From NCBI GenBank assembly GCA_964643685.1, contig CAZXTN010000004.1, positions 1 to 40,576 of the forward strand: a stretch of 40,576 nucleotides of DNA, in the 5' to 3' direction. The notes under the pieces were generated by a model that worked only from the letters and a program-made list of their open reading frames with translations, ran no database searches and was not told the origin of the DNA. The translations under genes were made by a program, and so were the position numbers. This DNA is from Candidatus Micrarchaeota archaeon. Its GTDB lineage: Archaea; B1Sed10-29; JAJRYS01. Each line of letters opens with the position of its first letter. Positions within the stretch are counted from its first letter, which is position 1. Below, in pieces: positions 709 through 40,576 of this stretch.

Positions 709-822
709 GCGCTCGTTGTCTAGTGGTTATGATGGTAGATTGCCAATCTATCGGCCCGGGTTCAATTTTGCGCTAAAGTTCTTTCAACGAACTTTTCGCA
801 AGCGAAAATCCCGGCGAGCGCA
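709..822 (+). tRNA. tRNA-Gly(GCC) with T-loop (59/60) intron 767-808
   Basis: Acceptor GCGCTCG/CGAGCGC-A; anticodon arm GTAGA-TTGCCAA-TCTAT (GCC 742-744); T-stem CCGGG/CCCGG interrupted by a 42-nt hairpin. Confidence 0.92.
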
Positions 823-946
823 TTTAAAACAAGATGAAGGCAATTAAGAATTATAAGATGAAAAATGAGCACTTCAGCAAAGCTGAATGTGGTCACATTA
901 AATGCAATTTTTGTTAAAAATTGCCGATGATCCCGGCGAGCGCATT
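808..946 (+). mobile_element. tRNA-Gly(GCC) 3'-end duplication cassette
   Basis: 17-bp direct repeat ATCCCGGCGAGCGCATT at 808-824 and 930-946 encloses 105 bp with hairpins 866-895 and 904-924. Mobility is inferred. Confidence 0.6.
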
Positions 947-1033
947 CTGTTTCTAATTTTCTGTTAATTTAGTTTCAGCTTTCTAAACATTATATAAACC
1001 AAAAAAGACACAACATTAATCAGTGAAAGCAAA

Positions 1034-2302
1034 ATGATTGACATAAAAATAGTCAGGGAAAAACCAGAAGAAGTTAAAAAAATGCTTGAAAAAAGACACT
1101 CCAATTACCCCCTAGACAAGTTAATAAAAGCAGACAAAAAATGGAGGGAATTAAAAACAAAACTTGAAAACAAAAAGCATGAAAAAAACAAAGTAAGTCA
1201 AGAAATAGCTGAAACGAAGTCACAAGAACAAATACAGCAAATGAAAAAACTAAAAGAAGAAATCAAGCAAACAGAACAAGAAATAGATGCAGTGAAAAAA
1301 GAATTAGACAAGCTTATTTTAGCATGCCCAGCAATGCTTGATGAAACAGTGCCAGAAGGAAAAGATGAACAAGACAATGTAGAAATAAGAAAATGGGGAG
1401 AGCCGAAACAATTCAACTTTGAATTAAAAAACCATGCTGAATTAATAGAAGAACTGAACATTGGAAACTTTGAAAAAGCAGCTCAAGCAAGTGGAAGAGG
1501 ATTCAACTACTTATTCAATGACTTGGCTTTACTTGACTTAGCTCTTCAAAAATTCGCAATTGACTTCCTCATGAAAAAAGGGCACAGTTTAGTCACTCCT
1601 CCTCTAATGCTTAACAAAAAAGCATACGAAGGAATCGTTGACATGGAAGACTTTGAAAACGTCATGTACAAAATACAAGACGAAAACAATTACTTAATAG
1701 CAACAGCAGAACACCCATTAATAGCATTGTTCGCAAATGAAGTAATCCCAGAAGAACAACTCCCAATAAAACTTGTTGGAGTAAGCCCTGCTTTCAGAAA
1801 AGAAATAGGGGCACATGGAGTAGACACAAGAGGACTGTTCAGAATGCATCAATTCAACAAAGTAGAACAAATCATCCTAAGCAAGCCAGAAGACTCAAAA
1901 AAATACTTAGAAGAACTGCACGCAAACGCAGAAGAACTATACAAAGCACTTGAAATTCCATTCAGAACAATTGAAATCTGCGCAGGAGACTTGTCAATAA
2001 AAAATGCAAAACAATATGACATAGAAGCATGGTTCCCAAGGCAAAAGCAATACAAAGAAGTTGGAAGCAGTTCAAACTGCGTGGACTTCCAATCAAGAGC
2101 ACTTAACATAAAATATGGCAAAAGAGGAGGAAACAAAGAATATGTCCATACGCTCAACGCAACTGGAATCGCAACAAGCAGAGCACTCGTAGCGATACTT
2201 GAAAACAACCAGCAAGAAGACTGTTCAATAATAATACCAAAAGTGTTGGTTCCTTACATGAATGGCAAAACAAAAATACTTAAAAACAAAGAAATACTAT
2301 AA
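1034..2302 (+). CDS. serS: seryl-tRNA synthetase
   Basis: N-terminal coiled-coil arm; LIATAEHPL, FRKEIGAHG..RGLFRMHQFNKVEQ, SSSNCVDFQSR, HTLNAT motifs. Confidence 0.98.
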   Translation: MIDIKIVREKPEEVKKMLEKRHSNYPLDKLIKADKKWRELKTKLENKKHEKNKVSQEIAETKSQEQIQQMKKLKEEIKQTEQEIDAVKKELDKLILACPAMLDETVPEGKDEQDNVEIRKWGEPKQFNFELKNHAELIEELNIGNFEKAAQASGRGFNYLFNDLALLDLALQKFAIDFLMKKGHSLVTPPLMLNKKAYEGIVDMEDFENVMYKIQDENNYLIATAEHPLIALFANEVIPEEQLPIKLVGVSPAFRKEIGAHGVDTRGLFRMHQFNKVEQIILSKPEDSKKYLEELHANAEELYKALEIPFRTIEICAGDLSIKNAKQYDIEAWFPRQKQYKEVGSSSNCVDFQSRALNIKYGKRGGNKEYVHTLNATGIATSRALVAILENNQQEDCSIIIPKVLVPYMNGKTKILKNKEIL

Positions 2303-2321
2303 AACAACGCAACAACAACAC

Positions 2322-2444
2322 GGGCCCGTAGCTCAGTCAAAGCTCCACTTCTTATTGATTAAAAAAATGAGGAAGAGCTTCTGAAATGGTCAGAGCGTCG
2401 GACTCTTAATCCGAGTGCCGGGGGTTCGAATCCCCTCGGGCCCG
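2322..2444 (+). tRNA. tRNA-Lys(CTT) with D-loop intron (17/17a) 2339-2386
   Basis: Acceptor GGGCCCG/CGGGCCC-G; TCGGA-CTCTTAA-TCCGA; GGTTCGAATCC. Junction TCAG/CTGA helix with TC|A and AA|T bulges and outer helix AAGCTC/GAGCTT. Confidence 0.93.
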
Positions 2445-2457
2445 TTTACACAAAAAA

Positions 2458-2483
2458 GACCACTAAACGAAGCGCACGTGATC
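2458..2483 (+). repeat. GACCAC-type hairpin downstream of tRNA-Lys
   Basis: GACCAC-TAAACGAAGCGCAC-GTGATC; related copies at 98-126, 866-895 and 34043-34070. Confidence 0.7.
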
Positions 2484-2511
2484 GATTGATACAAACTTTT
2501 AACTGATTTTT

Positions 2512-4071
2512 ATGGCTGATGAAAAAAAAGCACTGCATTGGGCAGACAAGTATGCGGAGCAAATCATTGCACGCAATCCTGAAAAAAAAGAATACATAGT
2601 GGAAAGTGGAATCACTCCTTCTGGAACAGTGCATGCTGGAAACTTCAGAGAAACAATGACGCAAGAACTCGTCTACAAAGCGCTTTTAGACAAAGGAGTA
2701 AAAGCAAGGTACATTTATTATTGGGACGATTACGACAGGTTCAGGAAAGTGCCTAAAGGAGTTCCAAAAGAATGGGAGCAGTATATAGGGATGCCTTTGT
2801 TTAAAGTTCCTGACCCACATGGTTGTCATGATAATTATGCAGAACACCACGAAGCGCCAGTGCAACAAGAAAACGAAGCAGTAGGCATACACGTAGAGTA
2901 CTTGCATTCTTCAAAAGAGTATCCGAAAGGAATCTATGCTGACTACTTAAAAACAGCGTTAGAGAATAATGATAAAATAAGAGAAATTTTAAACAAGTTC
3001 AGAAAAGAACCTTTGCCTGAAAACTGGCTGTGCGTGGAGGTTTACTGTGAAAAATGCTGGAGGGATAAGACAACAGCTAAGTATGAGGGCGGTTATGAAG
3101 TTAGTTATAAATGCAATTACTGTGGGCATGAAGGAAGAATAAATTTTCAAAAAGGAGGAAGGGTTAAGCTTAGATGGAGAAGCGACTGGCCAATGAGATG
3201 GGCTTATTACGGAGTTGATTTTGAGTCATCTGGAAAAGAGCATAAAGCAGCAGGAGGAAGCTGGGATACTGGAATTAGGATAATGAAAGAAGTTTTCAAA
3301 AAAGAGCCACCAATAGGCCCAATGTATGAATTTATTTATTTCAAGGGACAGAAAGAAAAAATGAGTTCCTCAACAGGAAATGTCATAAAAGTAAGGCAGT
3401 TGTTAGAAGTTTATGAACCAGAAGTAGTCAGGTACTTGTATACTGCAAAAATAAACAAGTCATTTGAAATTTCATTTGATGCTGACCTATTAAATGATTA
3501 TAACTACTTTGACAAAGCAAAAAAAATGTACTACGGCAAAATAGAAGAAAAAGATGAAAATGAAATAAGAAAATATGAATTAGCTAAACTTACAGATGAG
3601 TACGTTGACTTGCCTCAATTTTCAGTATGCGTCAACGCAATACAAATAGCACTCGGAGACATTGAAAAGGCGAGGGAGATTTTGAAAAAAACAGGGCACC
3701 CTTACGAGCATGCAGATAAGAGGTTACAGTTAGCTTGGAACTGGGTTCAGAAATACGCTCCTGAACAATTCAAGTTCACAGTTAAACAGAATTTGAAAGA
3801 AATAGCAGAAGACATAAGATTGAATACGTGGAGCGATGAAATGAAAGAACTGCTGAAAGAAACAGCTGATGAAATTGAAAAAGGAGCAACAGGAGAGGAA
3901 CTTCAGCAGTTTATTTTCAACACTGCAAAAGCAAAAGAGATACCTGTAAAAATTGCTTTCATGACATTTTATCAATTGTTACTTGGAAAAAGCAGGGGGC
4001 CGAAACTAGGTCCTTTCCTAGCTTCTCTTGACAAGGATTTTGCAGTGAAAAGATTAAGGTTAGAAGCATGA
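2512..4071 (+). CDS. lysS: lysyl-tRNA synthetase, class I
   Basis: HWAD..A, SGITPSGTVHAGNFRE (HIGH-like), DWPMRW, KMSSS, RGPKLG. Confidence 0.97.
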   Translation: MADEKKALHWADKYAEQIIARNPEKKEYIVESGITPSGTVHAGNFRETMTQELVYKALLDKGVKARYIYYWDDYDRFRKVPKGVPKEWEQYIGMPLFKVPDPHGCHDNYAEHHEAPVQQENEAVGIHVEYLHSSKEYPKGIYADYLKTALENNDKIREILNKFRKEPLPENWLCVEVYCEKCWRDKTTAKYEGGYEVSYKCNYCGHEGRINFQKGGRVKLRWRSDWPMRWAYYGVDFESSGKEHKAAGGSWDTGIRIMKEVFKKEPPIGPMYEFIYFKGQKEKMSSSTGNVIKVRQLLEVYEPEVVRYLYTAKINKSFEISFDADLLNDYNYFDKAKKMYYGKIEEKDENEIRKYELAKLTDEYVDLPQFSVCVNAIQIALGDIEKAREILKKTGHPYEHADKRLQLAWNWVQKYAPEQFKFTVKQNLKEIAEDIRLNTWSDEMKELLKETADEIEKGATGEELQQFIFNTAKAKEIPVKIAFMTFYQLLLGKSRGPKLGPFLASLDKDFAVKRLRLEA

Positions 4072-4658
4072 CTTTTAAGCAATTAGAAAAGCAAGTGAAG
4101 GAAAAATTTGAGAAGGAAAAAAGAGGTTCAGCGCATGACTTCATGCACATTCAAAGAGTCATGAAAAACGCTGAGTTAATTGGAAGAGAAGAAAAAGCAA
4201 ATTTGAAAATTTTAAAATACTCTGCTTTACTGCATGATTATGTGAGAGAAACAGCGCATGAATTGAAAGGAAACCATGCTCTTGAATCAAGCAAAAAAGC
4301 ACGCAAACTACTTCTAAAAGAAAAATTGACAAAAAAAGAAATTAATGAAATCTGCCACGCAATAGAAGCACACAGCAGGCGTTCAGAAGTAAAACCAGAG
4401 ACACTTGAAGCAAAAGTTTTATTTGACGCTGACAAGCTTGATGCAGCTGGTTACTATGGTTTTTTAAGATGGATAGCTCAAGCAAGCGAATTAAACTGGA
4501 GCATAGACAAAGCAATTCAATTTTACTTGAAAGAAGCTGAAAAAACAATTAAAAAAGGATTCTATACTAAAACAGGAACAAAACTAATTAAAAAAAGGTC
4601 AACTGAAGCAATAAAATTAGCCAAGCAGATTCAAAAACAATTGAAAAAAGAACAGTAA
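4068..4658 (+). CDS. HD-domain phosphohydrolase
   Basis: AHDFMHIQRV, ALLHD, AIEAHS, DADKLDA. Confidence 0.9.
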   Translation: MTFKQLEKQVKEKFEKEKRGSAHDFMHIQRVMKNAELIGREEKANLKILKYSALLHDYVRETAHELKGNHALESSKKARKLLLKEKLTKKEINEICHAIEAHSRRSEVKPETLEAKVLFDADKLDAAGYYGFLRWIAQASELNWSIDKAIQFYLKEAEKTIKKGFYTKTGTKLIKKRSTEAIKLAKQIQKQLKKEQ

Positions 4659-4777
4659 GCAAAAGCAATACAAACAAAAAACAAAAAAATAATCGACTTG
4701 TGACGTGGAAAAGGTTAAATAAAGTCTAAATTATAATTTTTTTAACTATTTTAAAAAATTCAGGATGTGATTGTTAA

Positions 4778-5866
4778 ATGAATGCAATTGAAAAATTGAA
4801 ACAGCACAAGCAAGAAGTTGACAAAAGACTAAGCAAGTATTTTCATGAAAAGCTAGAGCATGCAGTAATGGAATCAGAAGCAATTGAATATATAAAAGAG
4901 TTATCAGAGCATATTAATGAATATAACTTAAGAGGAGGAAAGAGAATACGCCCTGCATTCGTAGTTGAAGGATACAGAGCAGTAGGGGGAAAAGACATCG
5001 ATTCTATTTATGATGCTGCCCTTGCAGTTGAAACAATGGAAGGTTATTTGTTAATACATGATGATGTGATGGACAGGGATGATTTAAGAAGAGGAGGAAA
5101 AACAGTACACAGGATATACAAAGAGTGGTTTGAAGAGAAACTTAAAGGAATGCCAGAAGAAGCAGAACATTTTGGTAATTCAATAGCAATAGATGCAGGG
5201 GACATAGTTGAAACATTCGGACCTGAATTAATAGCCTTGTCAAACTTTCCAGCTGAAAGAAAAATTGAAGCAATAAAAAAATATTCAAAAATAGCAAGGT
5301 ACACTGGTTATGGACAAGCACTTGATTTAATAGTTGAAAAACTTCCAGTTGAACAGGTAACAGAAAAGCATGTGCTGACAGTTCATAAATTCAAAACAAG
5401 CCTTTACACAATAACAGGCCCTCTGCAAATAGGAGTAATACTAGCAGGAGGCACAAAAGAACAACAGGAGCTAATGGAACAATATGGAGAAAATGTAGGC
5501 ATAGCATTCCAAATACAAGATGATATACTTGGAATTTATGCTGATGAAAAAAAATTAGGAAAACCAGTTGGAAGCGACTTAAAAGAAGGAAAAAGAACAC
5601 TTCTAATACTAAAAGCTCTTGAAAAAGGAACACCAGAACAAAATGAAAAATTAAAATCATTCCTAGGAAAGCAAGACATAACACCAGAAGACGTCAAAGA
5701 AGCGCAGAAAATAATTGAAGAAACAGGCTCTCTAGAATACTCGAAAAATCTTGCAATAGAATATGCTAAAAAAGGAATTTCTGCAATTGAAAACGCTGAA
5801 TTAGAACAAGAAGGAAAAGAATACCTGCTTGGAATAGCAGATTACCTGATAAATAGAGAATTTTAA
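4778..5866 (+). CDS. idsA: geranylgeranyl diphosphate synthase (polyprenyl synthase)
   Basis: GGKRIRP, LIHDDVMDRDDLRRG (FARM), GQALD, FQIQDD, GKPVGSDLKEGK. Confidence 0.95.
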   Translation: MNAIEKLKQHKQEVDKRLSKYFHEKLEHAVMESEAIEYIKELSEHINEYNLRGGKRIRPAFVVEGYRAVGGKDIDSIYDAALAVETMEGYLLIHDDVMDRDDLRRGGKTVHRIYKEWFEEKLKGMPEEAEHFGNSIAIDAGDIVETFGPELIALSNFPAERKIEAIKKYSKIARYTGYGQALDLIVEKLPVEQVTEKHVLTVHKFKTSLYTITGPLQIGVILAGGTKEQQELMEQYGENVGIAFQIQDDILGIYADEKKLGKPVGSDLKEGKRTLLILKALEKGTPEQNEKLKSFLGKQDITPEDVKEAQKIIEETGSLEYSKNLAIEYAKKGISAIENAELEQEGKEYLLGIADYLINREF

Positions 5867-5884
5867 AAGAGGCAAAAGGATCAA

Positions 5885-6673
5885 ATGAAAAGTTTAAAAA
5901 TACTTAAGATAGGCGGCAGCATAATCACTGATAGGAAAAGCAGCACACCTAAAGTGAATTATAAAGCACTTAAAAGAATTGCGAGAGAAGTAAGCAGTTA
6001 TAAAGGCGATTTAATTTTGATTCATGGAGCAGGGAGCTACGGGCACCAGATAGTGAAAAAAACAGGAATACACAAGGGCATTAAAAACAAAAAGCAAGTG
6101 CTGGCTTTTGCTGAAACTCAAAAACTTCAAAATGAGCTAAATGCAATAGTATGCAATGAATTAATAAAAGCAGGAGTTCCCGCCATTCCAGTGCAAGCAT
6201 CTGCAAGCGCGATCATGAGCAAAGGAAAAATGAAAAAAATGAACCATGAAATTGTGAAAAAAATGCTTGAAATTGGGCTTGTTCCTGTGCTTTATGGCGT
6301 GCCAGCTTATGATGAGAGCCAAAAATGTTCCATTTTATCAGGAGATGAAATTGCACCTTACCTTGCATTAAAACTAGGTGCTGAGAAAGTGATACATGCA
6401 ACAGATGTTGATGGGGTTTTCACAGCAGATCCTAAAAAAGATAAAAATGCAAAACTTATTCCTCTAATAACTGAAAAAAATTTGAAAGAAGTGAAAAAAG
6501 CAATAACAGGCTCGACTAATATAGATGTAACTGGGGGCATGATGAAAAAAATAAACGAGCTTATGAAATTAAGAAAAAAAGGAGTGGAAACAATTTTAAT
6601 TAATGCCAATGAAAAAGGCAGGGTAAGAAAGGCATTAGCAAACAAAAAAGTAATTGGCACCATTGTGAAATAA
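5885..6673 (+). CDS. ipk: isopentenyl phosphate kinase
   Basis: Amino-acid-kinase fold LKIGGSIIT, HGAGSYGH, SGDE, DVTGGM; sits between idsA and fni. Confidence 0.93.
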   Translation: MKSLKILKIGGSIITDRKSSTPKVNYKALKRIAREVSSYKGDLILIHGAGSYGHQIVKKTGIHKGIKNKKQVLAFAETQKLQNELNAIVCNELIKAGVPAIPVQASASAIMSKGKMKKMNHEIVKKMLEIGLVPVLYGVPAYDESQKCSILSGDEIAPYLALKLGAEKVIHATDVDGVFTADPKKDKNAKLIPLITEKNLKEVKKAITGSTNIDVTGGMMKKINELMKLRKKGVETILINANEKGRVRKALANKKVIGTIVK

Positions 6674-6689
6674 ATAGTCGGTTGGAAAA

Positions 6690-7727
6690 ATGGCAAATGA
6701 AAAAACGCTTACAAGAAAAGAAGAGCATTTAAGAATATGCTTAGAAGAAAAAGTTGAAACAAGTTCAACATTATTTGAAAGCGTGGTTCTTAAACATGAA
6801 GCTTTGCCTGAATTTGATTATTATAAAATTGACACTTCTGTTTCTTTCTTAGGCAAAAAATTCAAGTTCCCTTTGATGATAGCTGCGTGCACAGGAGGAA
6901 TACCAAAAGCAGAGGAGATAAACAGGGCTTTTGCAGAAGCAGCGCAGGAAAAAGGAATTGGAATGGGTTTCGGTTCACAGAGGGCAATGATTGAAAACCC
7001 TGAGAAAATAAATTCATATAAAGCAAGGGACATAGCTCCAGACATCTTCTTAGCTGGAAACATTGGAATAAGCCAGATAAAGCAGTTTAAAACAACCCAG
7101 ATTCAAGAAGCAATGGATGCAATAGAAGCAGATGCCCTGTGCGTGCACTTGAATCCTGCACAGGAATTCTTTCAAAAAGATGATGAAAGAGATGTTGACT
7201 TTTCAAACACATACGAAGCACTCGCAAACTTATGCGACACGCTAAGCATACCAGTTATTGCAAAAGAAGTTGGTAATGGCATATCCAAGGAGACTAGCTT
7301 GAAGCTTAAGCAAGCTGGAGTAAAAGCAATTGATGTCGGAGGCGCAGGTGGGACGAGCTGGGTTGTTGTAGACAGCCTGCGTTCAGGCAAAAACGCAGAC
7401 GAGTTTAAAAATTGGGGTATTCCAACAGCAGCTTCAATACTAGAAGCAAAAGAAGCTGAACTGCCTTTAATTGCAACAGGAGGAGTGAGAACAGGACTTG
7501 ATATTGCAAAATCAATAGCATTAGGGGCAGATTTGACAGGAATCGCTCTTCCTTTCTTGAAAAAATACCATGATAATGGTGTTAAGGGGTTAGTTGAGTA
7601 TATGGATCAGTTAGAAGATGAATTGAAAGCAGCAATGTTTTTCACAGGTTCTGAAAAGGTAAGGGAATTGAAAAAAGCAAATTATGTCCTGTTAGGGAAA
7701 TTAAGAGATTGGCAGATGCAGATTTGA
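6690..7727 (+). CDS. fni: type 2 isopentenyl-diphosphate delta-isomerase
   Basis: RKEEH, TGG, GSQR, HLNPAQE, KEVGNG, GAGGTSW. Confidence 0.96.
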   Translation: MANEKTLTRKEEHLRICLEEKVETSSTLFESVVLKHEALPEFDYYKIDTSVSFLGKKFKFPLMIAACTGGIPKAEEINRAFAEAAQEKGIGMGFGSQRAMIENPEKINSYKARDIAPDIFLAGNIGISQIKQFKTTQIQEAMDAIEADALCVHLNPAQEFFQKDDERDVDFSNTYEALANLCDTLSIPVIAKEVGNGISKETSLKLKQAGVKAIDVGGAGGTSWVVVDSLRSGKNADEFKNWGIPTAASILEAKEAELPLIATGGVRTGLDIAKSIALGADLTGIALPFLKKYHDNGVKGLVEYMDQLEDELKAAMFFTGSEKVRELKKANYVLLGKLRDWQMQI

Positions 7728-7757
7728 TGCTAAAACAATAAACACAATTATCGCTTT

Positions 7758-7816
7758 TTGTCGTGACAAGGTTTTTAAATAAACGTTTTAATAATTTATG
7801 TTACTTTTAAGGAGGT
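7758..7816 (+). promoter_or_regulatory. putative promoter with upstream palindrome, plus Shine-Dalgarno site
   Basis: Palindrome TTGTC-GT-GACAA 7758-7769; TATA-like TTTAAATA 7774-7781; GGAGGT 7811-7816. Confidence 0.5.
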
Positions 7817-7824
7817 AAATGTAA

Positions 7825-7875
7825 ATGGGTGTTGGACTTTTTGACGAGTCTCCTTTGACAGATCCAGATGAATAA
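7825..7875 (+). CDS. putative 16-aa peptide MGVGLFDESPLTDPDE
   Basis: GGAGGT 8 nt upstream of the ATG; first ORF after a TATA-like box; too short for the ORF track. Confidence 0.5.
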   Translation: MGVGLFDESPLTDPDE

Positions 7876-7891
7876 AAAGGGAGAGGGAGAC

Positions 7892-9833: not shown

Positions 9834-9889
9834 GCTTTAAAACAATGCATTGAAGGTATAAAAATGTTAAACATGGTTGAAAATTGTTT

Positions 9890-10228: not shown

Positions 10229-10262
10229 TTCAAAACCACCTCTTTTTAACAAGTTATTAAAG

Positions 10263-10359: not shown

Positions 10360-10504
10360 TGTTTACTGAAACAAACCAAACTTAACGCAAAACAAAACAT
10401 TTATAAATTTAACTATTTCAATATAGTGTTACTATTAGTGAGTTACAAAGCATAGGGTTTTTTAAAGGAGGAAAATTAATTAAATTAAACAGTGATTTGT
10501 TAAA

Positions 10505-21326: not shown

Positions 21327-21330
21327 AAAA

Positions 21331-22179
21331 ATGAATTCAAAAATCAAGGCATGGTACGAGCTTCTTAATCCAGCACACGCTTTAATAGTCCTGCTTGGAA
21401 TCGTCACAGGAATAAAAACAGCAGGAGGCTCTCTTGAATCAACACAGCTCTTTTTTTCAGCTGTTCTAAGCTTTTCAATAATAGCAGCTGCTTTCATTTT
21501 AAACGATTACTGGGACCTTGAAGCAGATAAGGAAAACAAAAGAAAAGACAAGCCGCTAGTGACAGGAGAAATAAGCAAAACCCATGCACTATTCTCTGCA
21601 CTTGCTTTCTTAGCAATAGGCAATTACGCCTCTTACTTGCTTAATGAAAAAGTTTTCATCATCTCAATTATTTTCACAGCAATCCTGCTTGCATACAATT
21701 ACTACTTGAAAAAAGTAGCATTTATTGGAAATGCAACAATAGGCTTGACAATGGCAATTCCCTTCATTTACGGAAATTACCTCTGCTGCAGCAACTTATC
21801 TTCATTTGTACTTATCCTATCTTCAATGGCTTTCTTAATGGGCACAGGCAGGGAATTAATAGCATCAATAAGAGACAAAAAAGGAGATGAAAAACAAGGC
21901 AGAAAAACACTTCCTTCAATAATAGGAGATGAAAAAACAGCATGGCTCTCTTCATTTTTCATACTAACAGCAGTTTTCCTCTCTCCCCTCCCTCTGGTTA
22001 TGAAAGGCCCTTTCAACATGAATCCAGCTTACTTAATCTTCATAACAATCACAGATGTCCTTCTAATCCTTTCAATAAAAAACACTTTACTGCTGTCAAA
22101 CTACAAGCAAACAAGAAAACTAACATTGCTTGCGCAATTGACAGGCGTGCTTGGGTTTCTGCTAGCAACACTTATTTAA
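21331..22179 (+). CDS. digeranylgeranylglyceryl phosphate synthase (UbiA family)
   Basis: NDYWDLEADKEN, YNYYLK, GRELIASIRDKKGD; multiple TM helices; between egsA and GGGPS. Confidence 0.9.
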   Translation: MNSKIKAWYELLNPAHALIVLLGIVTGIKTAGGSLESTQLFFSAVLSFSIIAAAFILNDYWDLEADKENKRKDKPLVTGEISKTHALFSALAFLAIGNYASYLLNEKVFIISIIFTAILLAYNYYLKKVAFIGNATIGLTMAIPFIYGNYLCCSNLSSFVLILSSMAFLMGTGRELIASIRDKKGDEKQGRKTLPSIIGDEKTAWLSSFFILTAVFLSPLPLVMKGPFNMNPAYLIFITITDVLLILSIKNTLLLSNYKQTRKLTLLAQLTGVLGFLLATLI

Positions 22180-27181: not shown

Positions 27182-27188
27182 TTTTCAA

Positions 27189-27707
27189 TCAACCGTCCAA
27201 ATAAATGTTTAAGAAAGCTATGCAGTGGCTTGCTATGTATGATTTTGAGCCTATGTTTGCTTTTTTTACGCTTTCAGGCAAGGAATAATCTCCGTATCCC
27301 TTGTCATCTCCTATTATGAAAACAGGGTTTTCAGGCAGTTTCATTTCAGTTATTTTTTCTCCGCTTGCATCTAAGAAAATTTTATCCTCTTCTTTGAATT
27401 GGCTAAGAATGTCCTGAAACCCTTGCTCTAATAATCTTATTCCTGGAAACTTTCTGCCTGCGAGAGTGTGTTTGATAAATGAAGCTACGTTTCTCTCATC
27501 AATGTTCATGTTTCTGAAAGGAGGCTTGTAATGAAGCACTTTGTTGTTATTGAAGCACAGGTAAAGCTGTGCATCTTCTCTTATTTCATGGTCAATCCAG
27601 AACACAGTGCTGATTATTCTCGCAACCATGTCTATCCTGTTTTGAGTCAAGTTGTTCAGTTCAAAATCTTCTAAAGGATGATTGATTTTTAGAATGAATG
27701 TCCTCAT
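27189..27707 (-). CDS. trmY: tRNA (pseudouridine54-N1)-methyltransferase (SPOUT)
   Basis: MRTFI, RIDMVAR, DERN, FIIGDDKG, IGSKSYIASHCI; adjacent to pus10. Confidence 0.88.
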   Translation of the reverse strand: MRTFILKINHPLEDFELNNLTQNRIDMVARIISTVFWIDHEIREDAQLYLCFNNNKVLHYKPPFRNMNIDERNVASFIKHTLAGRKFPGIRLLEQGFQDILSQFKEEDKIFLDASGEKITEMKLPENPVFIIGDDKGYGDYSLPESVKKANIGSKSYIASHCIAFLNIYLDG

Positions 27708-29020
27708 AACTTAAATCCACCTGCTTGGAATTTTTTCATCAACTGATTCATGTTCCTTAACTTGCCTTTCTTGAATTTTTTAATCATCTTCTTTCCTGCT
27801 TCAAACTGTTTCAGTAATTCTTTAACTTCTTTTTCAGTAGTGCCTGAACCCCTTGCTATTCTCTTTACTCTTGATGACTTGATTTCATTTGGGTTCTCTT
27901 TTTCATATTTAGTCATTGAATCCATGATTACTTTGAATTTTTTCATCTTCTCCTCGCTTTGCTCTGCCAAGCCCACTGTCGCTGCGCCACCTAGCCCCAT
28001 CATTTCAAGTATTTTCTTCATTGAACCCATTTTCTTAGTTGCTTCCAGCTGCTTATAGAAAGCGTTCAAGTCATAATCGCCGCTCATTAAGTCCTCTGGA
28101 TTGAAGTCAGTTTCTTCAACTGCTTCTTTCATCTTCTCAACTAAGGAGCCTATGTCAGGAACTCCTAGCAAGCGCCCTATGAATTTTTCAGCATTGAATA
28201 CTTCAAAGTCATCTACTTTTTCCCCTGTTCCAATGAATGCAACTGGCACTTTTGCAACATGGCATGCTGAAAGAGCACCTCCTGCTTTTCCACTTGCATC
28301 TGCTTTAGTGGCAATGACTCCTGTCAAGCCAACTGCTTCATTAAATTCGGTTGCCTGCTTCACTGCTGTCTGTCCAATGTCAGAGGAAATAACTAAGAAC
28401 ACTTCATCTGGCTTCAATTCTTGCTTTATTCTTCTTATTTCGTCAATCAATTCTTCATTTAAAGAATCCCTTCCAGCAGAGTCAACTATTATCAAGTTTG
28501 CATTTTTTGCTTTTTCTAACCCTTGTTTTAAAATTTTCAAAGCATCTTTTTCCTCCGGATTCCCGTATGCAGGCACGTTAATTTGACTGCCTATCTGCTT
28601 CAATTGCTCGTATGCAGCTGGACGCCAAGTGTCAGTTGTTATCATTGCCGGCTTCAAGCCTCTTTTTGAATAGAACTTTGCCAACTTACCTGCTGTTGTT
28701 GTTTTACCGCTTCCATACAACCCAACTAGGAGTATCTTATGCGGTTCTATTCTTGGAACATACTGCTGTTCACCAAGTATTTCAACTAACGCGTCGTATA
28801 CTGTTTTTGTCAAATGCTCTTTCCTGGATATTCCAGGAGGAAGCTCTTGGCTTAATGCTTCTTTTTTTATCTTGTTTGAAATTTCCTGCACTAACTTTAT
28901 ATTTACATCTGAAGAAATAAGGACTCTTTGAAGTTCCTTGATTATTTCTTTGACTGCTTTTTCGTCTATTACTGAAGCCCCTGTTATTTTTCCAAACACT
29001 TCTTTTATTTTACCGAACAT
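27704..29020 (-). CDS. srp54: signal recognition particle 54 kDa protein
   Basis: GLYGSGKTTT, DTWRPAA, DSAGR, TKAD, M-domain IMDSMT..SRVKRIARGSG; ATG at 29020 avoids overlap with ftsY. Confidence 0.96.
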   Translation of the reverse strand: MFGKIKEVFGKITGASVIDEKAVKEIIKELQRVLISSDVNIKLVQEISNKIKKEALSQELPPGISRKEHLTKTVYDALVEILGEQQYVPRIEPHKILLVGLYGSGKTTTAGKLAKFYSKRGLKPAMITTDTWRPAAYEQLKQIGSQINVPAYGNPEEKDALKILKQGLEKAKNANLIIVDSAGRDSLNEELIDEIRRIKQELKPDEVFLVISSDIGQTAVKQATEFNEAVGLTGVIATKADASGKAGGALSACHVAKVPVAFIGTGEKVDDFEVFNAEKFIGRLLGVPDIGSLVEKMKEAVEETDFNPEDLMSGDYDLNAFYKQLEATKKMGSMKKILEMMGLGGAATVGLAEQSEEKMKKFKVIMDSMTKYEKENPNEIKSSRVKRIARGSGTTEKEVKELLKQFEAGKKMIKKFKKGKLRNMNQLMKKFQAGGFKL

Positions 29021-29028
29021 TTTAGTTT

Positions 29029-30261
29029 TCACTCTTCTTCGAATAGTTTTTTCATGAACCATTTCTTGTTGAATTTTGTCAAGTCGCTTAATTCCTGCCC
29101 TGTGCCCATGAACAGAATTGGCTTTTTGGTTTCATATGAAATTGACAAGATGCTTCCTCCTTTCACGTCAGCATCTGTTTTAGTCATTATTATGCCGTCA
29201 ATGTCAATGATTTCATTGAATCTTTTTGCTTCTTCAACTGCAGCGTTTCCAGCAAGAGCTTCGCCTACATAAATTTTCAAGTCAGGCTTAGCAACTCGCA
29301 CTATTTTTTTCAGCTGCTCCATTAAGTTGGTATTCAACTCGCTTCTGCCAGCAGTGTCTATTAACACGACGTCTATTTGCTTTGCCTGCGCGTGCTTTAC
29401 TGCGTCGAAGCATACTGCTGCTGGGTCTGCTCCGTACTGGTGTTTTATAACTTTTGTTTCTAGTTTCTCTCCCCATTTTTCAAGCTGTTCAATTGAAGCT
29501 GCTCTGAAAGTGTCAGCTGCTGCTAAGACAGTTGAAAAATTGCTCTGCTTCAAGTAATAAGTGAGTTTTGCTATGCTTGTTGTTTTCCCATGCCCGTTCG
29601 GGCCTACAAACATTATTACAAAAGGCCTTTCTTGCTTTGATTTTATTTTTTCAATCAATTCAAATGAAGGTTGTATTAAGATGTTTTCAACTGATTCTTT
29701 CAATGCGTTTAGGGTTAGTTGTCTTACATCCTGCGATGAAGTGATTTCTTTCCCAACTAGTTTTTCCTTTATTTCTTGCGTGATTTTTTCAGCTACGTTG
29801 ACTGATACGTCTGCTTCAAGCAGTTCAAGGTAAAAATCCCATAAAAGGGATTCAACATCTTCTTCTTTTATGACTGCTTTTCTGAGAATTGCTTTTTTCA
29901 ATTTAGTGGATAAAGTTAGTTTTGGAGCGAGTTTTTTCTTTGGCTCTTCTTTTTTTTGTTGCTTGTTCTTTTCCTTTTTTTCTTTATGCTCTTCTTTTTT
30001 TTCAGGTTCTTGTTTTTCTTGCTGTTCTTTTTTTACTTCTTCAGTTATTTCAAGAAGAGCTTTGCTTTCGCTTCTTTGAATTGCCTCTTCTGCTGCTTCT
30101 TTTTCCTCTGTTGTTGGCTGCGTCTCTTTTTTTATTTCTTGTAGGGCTTCAGTTGAGCTTGTTTCTTGCTGCACTTGTTCTGATTGCTGTAATTTTTTTT
30201 CTATTTTCTCTTCTTCTTTTTGGAAGAAGTTGTTTAACTTTTTTTTGAGAAAATCAAAGAT
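29029..30261 (-). CDS. ftsY: SRP receptor FtsY (probable non-AUG start at 30261; track start GTG 30174)
   Basis: GPNGHGKTT, DTFRAA, DTAGR, TKTDAD.KGG; in-frame upstream extension (I)FDFLKKKLNNFF follows SD AGGTGA. Confidence 0.93.
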   Translation of the reverse strand: MFDFLKKKLNNFFQKEEEKIEKKLQQSEQVQQETSSTEALQEIKKETQPTTEEKEAAEEAIQRSESKALLEITEEVKKEQQEKQEPEKKEEHKEKKEKNKQQKKEEPKKKLAPKLTLSTKLKKAILRKAVIKEEDVESLLWDFYLELLEADVSVNVAEKITQEIKEKLVGKEITSSQDVRQLTLNALKESVENILIQPSFELIEKIKSKQERPFVIMFVGPNGHGKTTSIAKLTYYLKQSNFSTVLAAADTFRAASIEQLEKWGEKLETKVIKHQYGADPAAVCFDAVKHAQAKQIDVVLIDTAGRSELNTNLMEQLKKIVRVAKPDLKIYVGEALAGNAAVEEAKRFNEIIDIDGIIMTKTDADVKGGSILSISYETKKPILFMGTGQELSDLTKFNKKWFMKKLFEEE

Positions 30262-30273
30262 AATTAATCACCT

Positions 30274-30687
30274 TTAATTTGTTTGCCTGTATTCCTGCAC
30301 TTTTTTAGCCAGCTCGTAGTAGTCTTTTTCCATTTGTTCTATTGTTTGCGTAAGCTTTTCAATGTTTTCTTGTATGTCTTTTTCTCTTGCTTCAAGTGTT
30401 TGCATTATTTCTTTAATGGGCTTTTCAACTATTACTCCTTCTCCTACTTCTATTAACGCGTTTTCCTGCTTGTTTATCTTTGTAGTTATGAACACTCCTG
30501 AGCCTATTGGTGTTTTTGTCTGCGTTTCTTTTTCAAGCTTTGATGTTTCTTTTAGTGTGTTTATTGCTGTTGCTGTTTCTATGAGTATCTTGTTTAGTGA
30601 TTGTATGTTTTGCTGTATTGCTGGAAGTTGCTGTTCTATTGCCCTTATTTTAATAACTGCTTCTTGTATTTCTTTTTCTTTGCTCAT
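30274..30687 (-). CDS. pfdA: prefoldin subunit alpha
   Basis: Coiled coils flanking PIGSGVF..IEVGEGVIVEK; conserved position before ftsY. Confidence 0.92.
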   Translation of the reverse strand: MSKEKEIQEAVIKIRAIEQQLPAIQQNIQSLNKILIETATAINTLKETSKLEKETQTKTPIGSGVFITTKINKQENALIEVGEGVIVEKPIKEIMQTLEAREKDIQENIEKLTQTIEQMEKDYYELAKKVQEYRQTN

Positions 30688-30711
30688 TTTTTTAACACCT
30701 CTTCCTTTTTT

Positions 30712-31344
30712 TTAATCGTATATGAATATGTCGTCTATTCTGTTTAGTTCAGGTCCTGTTGTCTGCGTGCTGACTATCAATCCTTTTTTGTTTCCAATTA
30801 TTGCTGATTTTACGAAAGGGTCTCCCATGTTTACTGTTCCTATTCCTCCAGGCACTTTGAAAATTTTTTCAAGTTTTTTGATTTCGTTTTCTTCAGCGTC
30901 TCTGTGGGCTATGAATGCAATGTTGTTGACATAGACAGCGCTTCCTATCAAGTCAGTTCCTGCTATTTTCAGGCCTTCTTTTTTCAATTCTTCTGAAAGG
31001 GCTGTTGAAATTGCCATTCCCCTGTCATTCATTGCTATTAGGTTTCCAACTGCTGTGCTTTTTTTGCTTATTACAATGACTTCTGAGAAAAAATCTTCTA
31101 TTCTTTTTTTCTCTTCTTTTTCTATTATTGAAGGGAGTATTGCTTTTTTGTTGTTTGCAGCCATTAAGACTCCTATGAGTCCTGACTGGGCGATTGTTGT
31201 TTTTATCACGTCAACTTCTAGTTTTTCTTTTATTTCTTTTTCTAATTTTTTTGAAATTGATGGTGAAACAAAAGCGTGATTGTCATTCACTAGGCAAAAT
31301 ACTCCTATATGAGGGGAACCATTGTAATCTGCTCTTGTTATCAT
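30712..31344 (-). CDS. eif6: translation initiation factor 6
   Basis: GSPHIGVF, GTVNMG, TTGPELNRI. Confidence 0.94.
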   Translation of the reverse strand: MITRADYNGSPHIGVFCLVNDNHAFVSPSISKKLEKEIKEKLEVDVIKTTIAQSGLIGVLMAANNKKAILPSIIEKEEKKRIEDFFSEVIVISKKSTAVGNLIAMNDRGMAISTALSEELKKEGLKIAGTDLIGSAVYVNNIAFIAHRDAEENEIKKLEKIFKVPGGIGTVNMGDPFVKSAIIGNKKGLIVSTQTTGPELNRIDDIFIYD

Positions 31345-31389
31345 ATTTTATCAGCACCTTTTGTTTAGAATTAGGTTTTTAATTAAATT

Positions 31390-31463
31390 AAAACTCTTTG
31401 GTTTTAAAAGAAGCTTCTTGCTTCCTCTTTAAAAAAAGCAAGGGAAAAAAGCGAGGCGAACCC
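31390..31463 (-). repeat. intergenic hairpin element related to 446-511 / 545-598
   Basis: Minus strand TTCGCCTCGC-TTTTTTCCC-TTGCTT...AAGCAAG, then TTTTAAAACCAAAGAGTTTT (compare 129-151). Confidence 0.45.
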
Positions 31464-31477
31464 TATTCCTGTAGGCA

Positions 31478-31900
31478 TTAGTTCTTGACAGGGTAAGCTG
31501 TTGCTTTTGTCTCTGTTATTTTTACTTTTATTTTCACTTTCCTAGGTGGGTTTCTTGCGCTGTTTTTCCACATTTCCTGGTTCATTGTTTCATGCAGTTT
31601 TGGCTCTTTTTTAGTGTGTCTTTTTATTAAGCTCTTTAGCACTTTGACAGCTGTTCTTGTTCTTTTCTGTCTTGGCGCTTTCCATGCTTCTTTTAAGTTG
31701 AAAGTGTAAATTTTTTCTTCGATTACTTTTTCTTCTTTTTTCTGCTTTTGCTTCTTCTCCTGTTTTTCCACTTCTTTCTTAGTGTCCTCTGCTTTCTTTT
31801 CAGCAGGGGTTTTTGCTTCTTCTGCTTTTTTTTTCTCAGCTTCTTTCTGTTCTTTCATTATTGCTTTTGCTTCTTTTGTTACTTCTGCATCTTTTGCCAT
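31478..31900 (-). CDS. rpl31e: 50S ribosomal protein L31e with charged N-terminal extension
   Basis: EKIYTFNL, KRTRTAVK, MNQEMW, NPPRKVKIK. Confidence 0.93.
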   Translation of the reverse strand: MAKDAEVTKEAKAIMKEQKEAEKKKAEEAKTPAEKKAEDTKKEVEKQEKKQKQKKEEKVIEEKIYTFNLKEAWKAPRQKRTRTAVKVLKSLIKRHTKKEPKLHETMNQEMWKNSARNPPRKVKIKVKITETKATAYPVKN

Positions 31901-31925
31901 TTTTTAATCACCTTTGAATGAAGAA

Positions 31926-32174
31926 TTAGTACTTCTTTTTTTTGGTTTTTACTTTTGGCTTGCGTAGCGGTTTTGTTGACTTCACGTATTTTTCTGACAT
32001 TTTTTGCTTTTTCTTTATTTTCTTGCCTAACTTTCCGCTTCTCCAGTGCCTTGTTCTGCCTTGTATCCAGTCTCTTGTCTTGGTTTTTAAATAAACCCAG
32101 ACCGGTGCTCTTTCGTTCTTGTTAATTTCTCTTGATAAGTATTTCTTTTTTTCACTTGTTTTGTTTTTAGCCAT
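31926..32174 (-). CDS. rpl39e: 50S ribosomal protein L39e with Lys-rich C-terminal extension
   Basis: MAKNKT..KK, N.RAPVWVYLKT, RHWR. Confidence 0.92.
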   Translation of the reverse strand: MAKNKTSEKKKYLSREINKNERAPVWVYLKTKTRDWIQGRTRHWRSGKLGKKIKKKQKMSEKYVKSTKPLRKPKVKTKKKKY

Positions 32175-32187
32175 TGTTTACAACTCC

Positions 32188-32613
32188 TTACTCTTTTTTG
32201 TTTTTTTTGATTTCAAGAACTGTTTTGTGTATTAATGACTGTCCTTTTGAAGTTATGCTTCTTCCTGTCTTGTCTTTTTTAACTAATCCTGCTGATTCAA
32301 GCTGCTGCAATGCTTTTCTTATGATGTTTGTTGAAGCGTCTGCATGATGTTCTGGTTTTGAGCCTCTGTTTTTTCTACCACCATACCATGTTGCTAGTTT
32401 GCCTACTCCTACTTTTCCTTCTATGTAAACTTTTCTTAGCACTGAAGCTGTTCTTGTGTACCACCAGTCTTTTTGAGATGGCTTTCTTTCAACATGAGCT
32501 CCTGTTTTCACATGCTCGCTCCATTGAGGTGGATTTATCTTTTCATTTTGCTTCAGCTTCTCAGCTAGTTTTTTAATAAGCGTTTGTGCTGGAACATCTT
32601 GTGCTGATACCAT
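32188..32613 (-). CDS. rps19e: 30S ribosomal protein S19e
   Basis: PQWSEHVKTG, DWWYTRTASVLRK, YGG, IIRKALQQLE. Confidence 0.97.
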   Translation of the reverse strand: MVSAQDVPAQTLIKKLAEKLKQNEKINPPQWSEHVKTGAHVERKPSQKDWWYTRTASVLRKVYIEGKVGVGKLATWYGGRKNRGSKPEHHADASTNIIRKALQQLESAGLVKKDKTGRSITSKGQSLIHKTVLEIKKNKKE

Positions 32614-32617
32614 TTGC

Positions 32618-32881
32618 TTAATCCTCCTTTTTCTTGGCTAAAATAAATGTTAATCCTTTTTTTTCAATTAACTTTGAATTTGTTTCTTTAAGAATTTGAT
32701 TAAGTGTCTGTTCAAATTCGTCGCGTATGATTTTTAGAATTTTAACCTTTATATACCCTTTTGTTTTAAGCTGCGCTTTCACTTCTTTAATTAAAGCCTG
32801 AGTTGTTTTGTTTTTACCAACCCAAATGCTTGGCTTCAGCTCATTCAACTCTTTTTTTGTAATCTCATTGCTTTTTTTCAT
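32618..32881 (-). CDS. YhbY/CRM RNA-binding protein
   Basis: LKPSIWVGKN, EVKAQLK...IKVKIL; conserved position between rnp4 and rps19e. Confidence 0.88.
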   Translation of the reverse strand: MKKSNEITKKELNELKPSIWVGKNKTTQALIKEVKAQLKTKGYIKVKILKIIRDEFEQTLNQILKETNSKLIEKKGLTFILAKKKED

Positions 32882-33207
32882 TTTCTTTCCTTCTTTTTTT
32901 CACCTGCTCCTATCACTGTTTGGTTTCCGCAATGCAAGCAAGTTATTTTAAACAAGGGTTTTTTCGGAATCTTCCTTATTTTCATGTTCTCTGAAGTGAA
33001 GTAAGTGAAGCAGTTCCTGCAGAACCTGTGCTTGTGCTTGCCTAGCCTTACTTTGTATTTCCTGCTTATTTTAAAAGCTAGTTCAGAGTACCTTCTGCTT
33101 CTTTCAGGATGGCTTAGCTTGTTTTCTTCAGCCAAGCTCATTAACTCATCTATTCTTTCTTGGGCGTATTTTTTCACCCAGTTTGGTTTTTTCTTTTTTT
33201 TAGCCAT
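32878..33207 (-). CDS. rnp4: ribonuclease P protein subunit Rpp21
   Basis: AQERIDEL, RRY, FCRNC...CLHCG zinc ribbon. Confidence 0.92.
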   Translation of the reverse strand: MAKKKKKPNWVKKYAQERIDELMSLAEENKLSHPERSRRYSELAFKISRKYKVRLGKHKHRFCRNCFTYFTSENMKIRKIPKKPLFKITCLHCGNQTVIGAGEKKKERK

Positions 33208-33225
33208 AAAAATCAAGAAGAAGCA

Positions 33226-33377
33226 AATAAAGTGCGCCGACGGGGACCTTCAGCAAACTTTGAAAAAAGTCAATCGCAATCTGCGATTGCTCAAACCTTT
33301 GCTAACGCAAAGTTTGCATCAAACCCAACGGCATAAAGCCGTAAACCCTCAACGCGAATAAAGTGCGCCGACGGGGA
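33226..33377 (-). mobile_element. tRNA-Gly(TCC) 3'-end duplication cassette
   Basis: 21-bp direct repeat AATAAAGTGCGCCGACGGGGA at 33226-33246 and 33357-33377 encloses 110 bp of hairpins. Mobility is inferred. Confidence 0.6.
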
Positions 33378-33467
33378 TTCGAACCCCGGCCATTGGCTTT
33401 TTTCACGCAACAGCGAACAAACCGAAGCGCTTGGAAGGCCAAGATCATACCACTAGACTATCGGCGC
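33364..33467 (-). tRNA. tRNA-Gly(TCC) with canonical 37/38 intron 33399-33431
   Basis: Minus strand GCGCCGATAGTCTAGTGGTATGATC-TTGGC-CTTCCA|33 nt|A-GCCAA..CGGGGTTCGAATCCCCG-TCGGCGC-A. Confidence 0.93.
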
Positions 33468-33477
33468 ATTTTAAATT

Positions 33478-33933
33478 TTACCTGAACCTTTTTAATTTCT
33501 TTGCTTTTTCTTCCTCTTCTTTTTTTCTTTCAAGGTAATTAATAGTTGTTATTATTGTATCTGCTGTTTGGAAAGGAGCTTCTCTTGCATCCCTCTCGCT
33601 TACTCTTATTACCTCAGCTCCTCTTTTTTCTATCTCTTCTCTTCTTTTTTTATCATACTCTTGTCTTGAATCATGGCTTCTTCCTTCTACTTCTATAACA
33701 TATGTCCTTCCATTTTTGGTTATGACAATATCAGTTACATAAGGACCTACATTTACCTGCTTGTAATGTTTTATCCCTTTTTTTTCAAGTGCTTTTGATA
33801 ACCTCTTTTCTCCTTCTGTAACTATTGCTTTTCCTCTTTTTTCTGCATTAATCCTTCTTCTCTTTTCTTCTTCTCTTCTTCTCCATTCATCTTCTTTCTG
33901 TTGTTTTTTCCTAAGCCATGCTGGTTTTGACAT
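33478..33933 (-). CDS. DUF559 / Vsr-like endonuclease-domain protein
   Basis: TEGEKRL..L...G...Q...GPYVTD...IEVEG.SH...YD..R...G.EVIR pattern. Confidence 0.85.
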   Translation of the reverse strand: MSKPAWLRKKQQKEDEWRRREEEKRRRINAEKRGKAIVTEGEKRLSKALEKKGIKHYKQVNVGPYVTDIVITKNGRTYVIEVEGRSHDSRQEYDKKRREEIEKRGAEVIRVSERDAREAPFQTADTIITTINYLERKKEEEEKAKKLKRFR

Positions 33934-33961
33934 TTTTTCACTTCTTTTAAATTTTAATCAA

Positions 33962-34095
33962 AGTGGGTCTGCCCAGATCTTCACCGAACCGCGGGGGACT
34001 TGGCTGTCCCCCTCAGTTTTAGGGAATTCCGGATCCCCCTGCTGACCACATGCGCTTTGCTTAGTGGTCATTTTTTTGAGTGGGTCTGCCCAGAT
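33962..34095 (-). mobile_element. tRNA-Val(TAC) 3'-end duplication cassette
   Basis: 17-bp direct repeat AGTGGGTCTGCCCAGAT at 33962-33978 and 34079-34095 encloses 100 GC-rich bp with three hairpins. Mobility is inferred. Confidence 0.6.
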
Positions 34096-40575: not shown

Positions 40576-40576
40576 T

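Follow-up and report, generated by a model that had tools for sequence, protein, structure and literature searches.

Three tRNA genes in a 40,576-nucleotide stretch of archaeal DNA are each followed by a short hairpin-rich cassette and by a second copy of their own 3' end. The stretch, hereafter called the window, is C4:1-40576 (contig CAZXTN010000004.1 of assembly GCA_964643685.1) from a Candidatus Micrarchaeota archaeon. The host genome, labelled G000, is that of a DPANN-type archaeon; it is a metagenome-assembled genome (MAG) of 695 kb in 12 contigs, with 36% G+C and 92% completeness. The cassettes are probably small (58-260 nt), non-coding, hairpin-rich repeat elements that were inserted behind tRNAs with re-copying of the target end, the distal exon being mostly a by-product. 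The process acts genome-wide, not only at tRNA 3' ends but also at the D loop, where it leaves 5'-exon duplicates, and at the 3' ends of protein genes. Having acted repeatedly and in recent times, it yields presence/absence differences between relatives.

In the window, the repeats are exact and direct. For tRNA-Gly(GCC), 17 nt at 808-824 recur at 930-946 (period 122); for tRNA-Gly(TCC), 21 nt are present at 33226-33246 and 33357-33377 (period 131); for tRNA-Val(TAC), 17 nt are present at 33962-33978 and 34079-34095 (period 117). All three repeats start at T60, the last base of the T loop, or one base earlier, and the six bases preceding the distal T60 are TGAA-GA (Val), TGAA-GG (Gly(TCC)) and CGAT-GA (Gly(GCC)). 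An earlier examination of the letters of the window (the sequence-only reading) had given the same lengths, periods, starting point and splice-like bases, all of which were found again exactly as described. It had also counted four tRNAs with introns at position 59/60, but the window holds three: Gly(GCC), Val(TAC) and Arg(GCG), the last at 40457.

A chance origin of the repeats is excluded. Genome-wide, 26 exact repeats (at least 14 nt, GC at least 45%, spacing 30-600) were detected, as against 0-2 in each of 10 block shuffles, and our reading of the repeat lists places 18 of these at the ends of tRNA genes. An artefact of metagenome assembly can practically be dismissed as well. This explanation would draw on the scaffold gaps, which are flanked by duplicated 55-mers. 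However, the repeats measure 14-58 nt, at most about the length of the assembler word (the 58 nt of Ile slightly exceed 55), and unique cassettes separate them. In addition, the same architecture is present in four other assemblies (G001 and G004 among them), and the sampled 31-mers of positions 33150-34250 are all (100%) contained in two Logan run assemblies, which may stem from the source sample. Half of the words were found in vent samples (runs X3 and X4). The gaps themselves are runs of 100 N between identical 55-mers (window 40522-40576 and G000:C4:40677-40731; also C1:199881 and C5:27105), identical 55-mers beside a gap being the assembler's word overlap. Contig C8 is largely a second copy of a part of C1 (for instance, C1:98900-99400 equals C8:23100-23600), and many contigs of G001 (C14, C20, C26, C27, C30 and C31) start 50-170 nt from a tRNA gene, as if the assembly had broken at tRNA-adjacent repeats.

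On the forward strand, tRNA-Gly(GCC) (709-822) carries a T-loop intron of 42 nt (767-808) and a proximal 3' exon (809-822). Its cassette (823-930) ends with a perfect A/T-rich hairpin followed by CGATGA, and leads into a distal 3'-exon copy (931-946) that covers T60 to A73 and two trailer bases. The other two genes are on the reverse strand. tRNA-Gly(TCC) (33364-33467) has an anticodon-loop intron and an intact T loop; its cassette (33247-33363) comprises four hairpins with TGAAGG at the end, and the distal copy (33226-33246) runs from T60 to A73 plus seven trailer bases. tRNA-Val(TAC) (34081-34223) contains an anticodon-side intron and a T-loop intron of 48 nt (34095-34142). Its cassette (33979-34080) is made up of an A run, hairpin a, hairpin H1, the long hairpin H2 and TGAAGA, and is followed by a distal copy (33962-33978) of T60 to A73 with two trailer bases. 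For annotation, it is relevant that ARAGORN detected none of the six window tRNAs and that Rfam placed two of them above threshold (Gly(TCC) alone among the three repeat-bearing ones), because many of their introns are non-canonical.

In order to survey the whole genome, a script was used that combines the acceptor 5' strand, the start of the T stem and T loop, and every downstream site supplying the T-stem and acceptor 3' strands. It returned 58 rows, from which 42 were accepted (C3:30590 being doubtful), one was dropped as belonging to the duplicate contig C8 and 15 were dropped as A/T-rich chance hits; with three genes added by eye, this made about 45 tRNA genes. One or two extra downstream copies of the 3' end accompany 16 of these ~45 genes, and 22 tRNA genes have an intron at 59/60 in the T loop. 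The search for tRNA 3' repeats across the genome and its relatives, a check proposed by the sequence-only reading, revealed further loci in the relatives too. Fully pairing extra copies of the 3' exon were found at 13 genes (15 copies, 72-176 nt downstream). At three further genes the copies are defective: that of Asn has one mismatch, which breaks a T-stem pair, that of Asp has two mismatches and that of the Leu gene on C9 lacks the T-stem strand. Thus, three of the 18 distal copies are unable to form a T stem, and two more begin at T54 with no intron-like end; some include the T loop (Thr and C1:220563, as well as Glu in G001 and Ala and Gly in G004). The left edge of the repeat is T60 in nearly all cases, and the right edge lies 0-45 nt beyond the discriminator. 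Repeat lengths range from 14 to 58 nt (58 nt for Ile, 33 nt for Arg) and spacings from 72 to 273 nt, with no open reading frame (ORF) within. The proximal and distal copies always agree with their own tRNA. Furthermore, at least four tRNA genes (Met, Pro, His and the one at C6:17127) have exact duplicates of the 5' end on their upstream side. They begin at position 1 or up to 17 nt upstream; those of Met and Pro break off in the D loop, the Met duplicate exactly at the site of its D-loop intron.

Upon all-against-all BLAST comparison of the 18 cassettes and the 22 T-loop introns, the cassettes were assigned to two groups. F1 contains eight (Val, Pro, Thr, Ile, His twice, Asp and Leu-C9, the Leu gene on C9). 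F2/F3 contains about ten, at Gly(GCC), Glu, Met, two Leu genes, C1:220563, Arg and Asn, with Gly(TCC) weakly linked. The Gly(GCC) cassette is 87% identical over 69 nt to that of tRNA-Glu and 97% identical over 31 nt to that of a tRNA-Leu, and the weakly F2-like cassette of Gly(TCC) shares matches of 16-23 nt with the Glu cassette. In the F1 elements, an A run precedes a hairpin whose loop is conserved; a further hairpin comes next, and then a long, interrupted one. For this long hairpin, RNAalifold predicted 14 pairs, compensatory changes being seen in seven, and an invariant U-G pair is possible only on the sense strand, which fits a sense-strand RNA. G000 holds at least 14 F1 copies or parts, small, non-coding and dispersed, each co-oriented with the gene upstream. 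When the cassettes were searched against Rfam 15, no family matched; the search gave tRNA hits and, elsewhere, sub-threshold chance hits. No terminal inverted repeats are visible in F1, the ends of which are not complementary. The GCGGTTCGG end of F1 was also considered as a relic of a T arm, but RNAalifold puts GCGGTTCGG in the long helix with compensatory changes and this reading was not relied on; in G004, the same end abuts the distal copy in a T-loop-like manner.

Two F1 cores, at tRNA-Leu (C9) and tRNA-Pro (C1), are 98.8% identical over 82 nt; the fillers on both sides and the flanking repeats differ, the repeats matching their own tRNAs. Such near-identical cores point to recent copying between loci. 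tRNA-Pro also has F1 sequence within its T-loop intron, equally far from the 3' splice site. A conserved family of large T-loop introns (80-115 nt, 81-94% identity between full-length members) was noted in seven or eight different tRNAs, with sites at G000:C1:32400-32508, C1:112255-112360, C6:17228-17394, C9:5955-6055, C6:36287, C2:13282 and C2:39873.

The last distal copies of His and Asn are followed by a four-hairpin trailer which directly trails many other tRNAs. This indicates that the distal copy is the original 3' end. The trailer is present in the window at 100-200 and in G000 at C1:113937-114030, C6:17365-17460, C6:36630-36720, C7:12220-12300, C3:54773-54872, C2:39935-40049 and C1:65974-66254, and also at L014:4060-4140, on the related metagenome contig described below. 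Reverse-complemented, the first of its four hairpins corresponds to the one that closes the F2 cassettes.

F1 elements are not confined to tRNA genes. By BLAST, A/T-rich copies were found just past the stop codon of three protein genes, encoding a 786-aa aminoacyl-tRNA-synthetase-like ORF, a 229-aa ORF and a ScpB-like ORF, where they are flanked by repeats of the last 26-38 nt of the gene; a fourth copy has no flanking repeat. The repeats match at 38/38 nt at C3:44261 and at about 24/26 at C3:66377, and are diverged at C6:631. Their periods (120 at C3:66377, 210 at C3:44261 and 150 at C6:631) are all multiples of 3, and the differences between the copies are mostly synonymous or stop-to-stop (three loci, about 11 differences). 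The half-site motif discussed below is missing at three of the four protein-gene copies, and the one at C3:44261 terminates in a truncated TGA immediately ahead of the repeat.

Comparison with relatives gave both empty and filled sites, the former having been looked for as the sequence-only reading had advised. On L014, a metagenome contig whose seryl-tRNA synthetase (SerRS) is 78% identical, Val(TAC), a small ORF, Gly(GCC), SerRS and Lys follow each other in a row. There, Val(TAC) and Gly(GCC) have kept their T-loop introns, with neither a cassette nor a distal copy. The Gly(GCC) intron is conserved in L014 and G004, and the Val intron in L014, its family also being present in G001, G002 and G004. 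At the Glu-L39e locus, G010 and G011 are empty, G000 is filled and G001 has an unrelated cassette. In G004, which belongs to another genus of the same family, Gly(GCC) and Ala(GGC) each carry an F1-type cassette and a distal copy, and Gly(GCC) has a 5' duplicate in addition; at two loci, a reverse-oriented F1 stands between duplicates of the tRNA-Leu 5' exon, once in tandem. The truncated tRNA piece is always faced by the same F1 end. Among 31 genomes of the class that were searched, the F1 motif was present in G000, G004 and G002; two further matches look like chance occurrences in coding sequence. Judged from these comparisons, the cassettes are recurrent insertions at the same kinds of site and not inherited fixtures. 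A model in which the cassette is an old intron displaced by the proximal exon was rejected for Val and Gly(GCC), their short introns being orthologous in the cassette-free L014. In G000, the group Val, ORF, Gly(TCC) (33233-34223) and the group Gly(GCC), SerRS, Lys (709-2444) are 32 kb apart on opposite strands. The order is contiguous in L014 (1800-4060), and the split in G000 suggests, from gene order, an inversion with breakpoints at the tRNA-Gly genes.

At its 3' end, the bulge-helix-bulge (BHB) motif of an intron at 59/60 is formed by four intron bases that pair with T-loop bases 54-57, by two bulged bases plus T60, and by the T-stem strand. Genuine T-loop introns of G000 end in NGAAAN in 20 of 22 cases. 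The related motif [A/C/T]GA[A/G]NN stands before the distal T60 in 13 of the 18 copies, compared with 2.1% of all six-base sites preceding TC, an enrichment whose significance is overstated by the mutual relatedness of the distal copies. A genome-wide enrichment of this kind had been anticipated from the three window loci. Pairing with T-loop bases 54-57 is complete for Val and Gly(TCC) (4/4 each) and partial for Gly(GCC) (2/4). The helix closing the 5' bulge, when paired by eye, has five pairs for Val (three of them G-U) and none at the two Gly loci, so that among the window loci this helix appears convincing for Val only. Relaxed BHB motifs are tolerated by some types of the splicing endonuclease EndA, as described in PMC5829648. 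In G000, EndA is present as a single 170-aa protein with both N- and C-terminal domains. Its closest named relatives come from MAGs of Micrarchaeota, Diapherotrites and the 'DPANN group', and P0001 is a 91%-identical relative.

The 98.8%-identical Leu-C9 and Pro cores have different terminal heptamers and therefore different half-sites, which places the half-site outside the copied unit. As a source of the heptamer, the tRNA's own variable loop (by deletion of 49-60) was considered and rejected: 8 of 9 bases agree for Val, but over the 18 sites the mean is 4.4/9 for the own tRNA and 4.1 for other tRNAs. A run of at least five T is missing from 9 of the 18 cassettes, and such runs occur inside 6 of the 22 genuine introns; read-through to the distal copy is thus plausible but unproven. 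Unconstrained folds of the three long precursors, in which the acceptor 5' strand pairs with the distal copy, were given no weight, as the copies are identical and the model favours the outermost helix.

These half-sites are one argument for programmed alternative 3' exons, an explanation that we regard as rather unlikely. In such a system, EndA would cut at 59/60 and before the distal T60, after which a ligase would connect the distal exon with the tRNA body. The real product would be the released proximal exon with its cassette, a stable, structured small RNA that is probably circular. The intron-type half-site before 13 of 18 distal copies, the complete T-loop pairing of the four bases at Val and Gly(TCC), the distribution of T runs and the presence of EndA are all compatible with it, as are the compensatory and sense-strand G-U pairs of F1 and the co-orientation of all its G000 copies with the upstream gene. 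However, it leaves aside the three distal copies with no possible T stem and the two that start at T54 with no half-site, and a 5'-bulge helix could be paired by eye at only one of the three window loci. Relatives manage with no cassettes, protein genes are followed by the same elements, which in G004 also lie upstream of tRNAs in antisense orientation, and the cassettes resemble no Rfam family.

A second explanation, which we hold to be unlikely, is that of classical att duplications: the cassettes would be miniature derivatives of integrative plasmids or viruses, moved by a tyrosine integrase acting in trans and encoded outside this assembly. Integration into the 3' ends of protein genes with a replacement end has precedents, and the synonymously differing ends observed here fit it; so does the inclusion of the T loop in some distal copies. 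Direct repeats from the T loop to the 3' end are the standard footprint of archaeal integrases in passages of PMC3293823 and PMC9897764. However, the described cases, in passages of PMC9897764, span 9-23 kb, compared with the ORF-free 72-273 nt found here. In addition, element ends, fillers and repeat lengths are variable, site-specific recombination giving precise junctions, and one element family would need more than 15 different att sequences. The profile PF00589 (tyrosine integrase) had no hit in the 92%-complete genome, with controls found in 14 of 14 cases; the statement of the sequence-only reading that the window lacks an integrase therefore holds and extends to the whole assembly. A viral or plasmid origin was not retained: two scans of viral contigs with the F1 motif gave no match, and the single match of a scan of genome contigs, in an unrelated bacterial MAG, was taken as chance.

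Searches of the same genome with PF00078 (reverse transcriptase), PF01797 (Y1 transposase) and PF01867 (Cas1) had no hits either. For TnpB-type proteins, one zinc-ribbon match was obtained, below threshold, and no cognate transposase was found. The reverse-transcriptase result bears on spread at the RNA level, in which a circular cassette RNA would enter tRNA transcripts by reverse splicing and be fixed through reverse transcription or RNA-templated repair. The repeat period does equal the size of the circle that would be released by splicing to the distal exon, and the repeats often reach the T run of the trailer, like the end of a transcript (Ile, Arg). Nevertheless, this is very improbable: no reverse transcriptase was found in the genome, and a migrating circle would bring the 3' exon of the tRNA it came from, yet the copies always match the local tRNA.

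Insertion of a repeat element behind the gene, with re-copying of the target end, is the reading that we favour. A copy of the element would be placed behind a tRNA gene, and the stretch from T60 to 0-45 nt past the tRNA end would be re-copied. The proximal copy would then make the working tRNA, and the distal copy, contiguous with the original downstream flank, would be a by-product able to decay. A read-through precursor might be spliced to the distal exon via the half-site, and on loss of the proximal copy the cassette would become a new intron at 59/60. Relatives do without the distal exon and some of its copies are damaged; it is thus dispensable. As for the inserting mechanism, we tentatively propose template switching or illegitimate recombination from another copy of the element, with the return guided by homology at T60-C61-C62, because core ends, fillers and duplication lengths vary and no recombinase was seen. 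The same variability makes classical site-specific recombination or transposition less likely, and a return in the wrong register is compatible with the truncated Leu-C9 copy. A trans-acting enzyme, unsampled or unrecognised, is nearly as likely as the inserter.

Several points weigh against this reading. The sharp left boundary at T60, with its intron-type six-base motif, is not accounted for by random template switching. Fully pairing distal copies are kept in 13 of the 16 affected tRNAs, the distal copy of Met has a substitution (G63 to A) that improves a pair, and three identical copies of the His 3' end are separated by cassettes that are only 76% alike; intact distal copies could reflect selection on the distal exon. 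At the protein genes, the synonymous pattern and the in-frame periods are not expected of neutral by-products; the numbers are small, and they are reported as unexplained. Finally, in a 92%-complete MAG a recombinase could have been missed.

The sequence-only reading had proposed a class of non-autonomous, tRNA-targeting elements linking T-loop insertion with intron gain or loss. The repeat families, the empty sites and the lack of an integrase bear out the non-autonomous class; tRNA specificity does not stand, with F1 also at the 3' ends of protein genes. The link to intron gain or loss gains from F1 being part of the genuine T-loop intron of tRNA-Pro and suffers from the half-site not being in the copied core. 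It is possible, though rather doubtful, that the cassettes are archaeal tRNA introns caught arriving: a structured element of about 80-100 nt would be copied beside a tRNA gene and would re-copy the exon from T60 (or up to the D loop), two interchangeable exons would then be present, the distal one with a half-site, and loss of the proximal one would leave an intron at 59/60 or in the D loop.

Among known systems, the partial tRNA duplicates left by integrases (SSV-type, pNOB8-type) are similar in that a directly repeated tRNA terminus flanks the insert and the tRNA is reconstituted beside it; duplicates of 5' fragments occur as well. Repeats of a tRNA 3' or 5' segment are present here, but neither an integrase, or a remnant of one, nor precise ends were found. 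In contrast to the integrase duplicates, the insert consists of 58-260 nt of non-coding hairpin modules, 16 of ~45 tRNAs are affected, the junctions are imprecise and the same elements stand behind protein genes. For Caldiarchaeum, passages of PMC3293823 propose a model of intron gain through integration. In Thermoproteales, similar introns at different tRNA positions led to the notion of 'intron transposition' (Fujishima et al. 2010, in passages of PMC4090602). As far as those passages go, Thermoproteales and G000 both have sequences common to the intervening sequences of different tRNAs (three T-loop intron families here) and insertion confined to sites where a BHB can form. Unlike there, related elements in G000 also lie outside the gene, with a duplicated exon, a possible intermediate. 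In the literature searched, no description of miniature cassettes with duplicated exons was encountered.

Miniature inverted-repeat transposable elements (MITEs), bacterial repetitive extragenic palindromic (REP) elements and the Rickettsia palindromic elements are non-autonomous palindromic repeats, often located at gene 3' ends. Like them, the cassettes are small, structured, non-coding, dispersed and multi-copy, but no cognate transposase was found. Unlike MITEs, F1 has no terminal inverted repeats, and the target duplication, of 14-58 nt, is variable and not short and fixed. The split and permuted tRNA genes of Nanoarchaeum, Caldivirga and Thermofilum also have tRNA pieces beside a leader or trailer able to form one half of a BHB, a 3' half-site being present here at 13 of 18 distal sites. 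In contrast to these, an intact gene is always present in G000, the extra piece is redundant and there is no sign of a separate promoter.

On the forward strand of the window, upstream of Gly(GCC), a hairpin cassette (445-536) starts with a decayed 5'-exon-like fragment (445-463), of which about 15/19 bases are like the 5' end of Gly(GCC); elsewhere, this type of hairpin trails the exact 5'-exon duplicates of tRNA-Met and tRNA-Pro. A second 5'-exon-like fragment (545-563) opens a three-hairpin cassette (545-655, forward strand) near-identical to the one between two 5'-exon copies of tRNA-Pro at G000:C1:166267. The segment 2322-2483 (forward strand) comprises tRNA-Lys(CTT), whose D loop is interrupted by an intron, and, at 2449-2483, a degenerate first hairpin of F1, which is 83% identical to the Val cassette over 35 nt and is not accompanied by a distal exon copy. 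tRNA-Arg(GCG) (40457-40576, forward strand) has a T-loop intron of the same small family as that of Gly(GCC), and is cut by the scaffold gap.

Between Val and Gly(TCC), an ORF of 151 aa on the reverse strand (33481-33933) encodes a small basic protein with DUF559, a Vsr-like PD-(D/E)XK nuclease domain. The genome has no second copy, and the ortholog on L014 has retained both termini (N and C) but not the domain; a link to the cassettes is a lead only. The gene of an RNase P subunit (Rpr2/Rpp21; 32881-33216, reverse strand) begins right after the distal Gly(TCC) copy. At 21991-22047 (reverse strand), Rfam gave a sub-threshold match to the C/D-box small RNA sR14 (21 bits, cut-off 38). A second repeat family was noted at gene starts: a palindromic element, opening with a copy of the initial codons, start codon included (ATGAAAATC...), extends for about 70 nt up to the real, identical start. 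It is present at G000:C2:4959-5035, C4:69425-69497, C5:14421-14495 (reverse strand) and C5:42119-42254 (two in tandem).

Taken as a whole, the finding bears on how archaeal BHB introns enter tRNA genes. The 16 loci with duplicated exons beside intron-like cassettes, a cassette family that recurs in a genuine intron, different tRNAs with nearly identical copies and empty sites in relatives provide candidate intermediates. If the cassettes are introns caught arriving, this would account for the T-loop introns in half of the tRNA genes of this organism, and would amount to a general way of gaining BHB introns that needs few enzymes and whose traces soon vanish.

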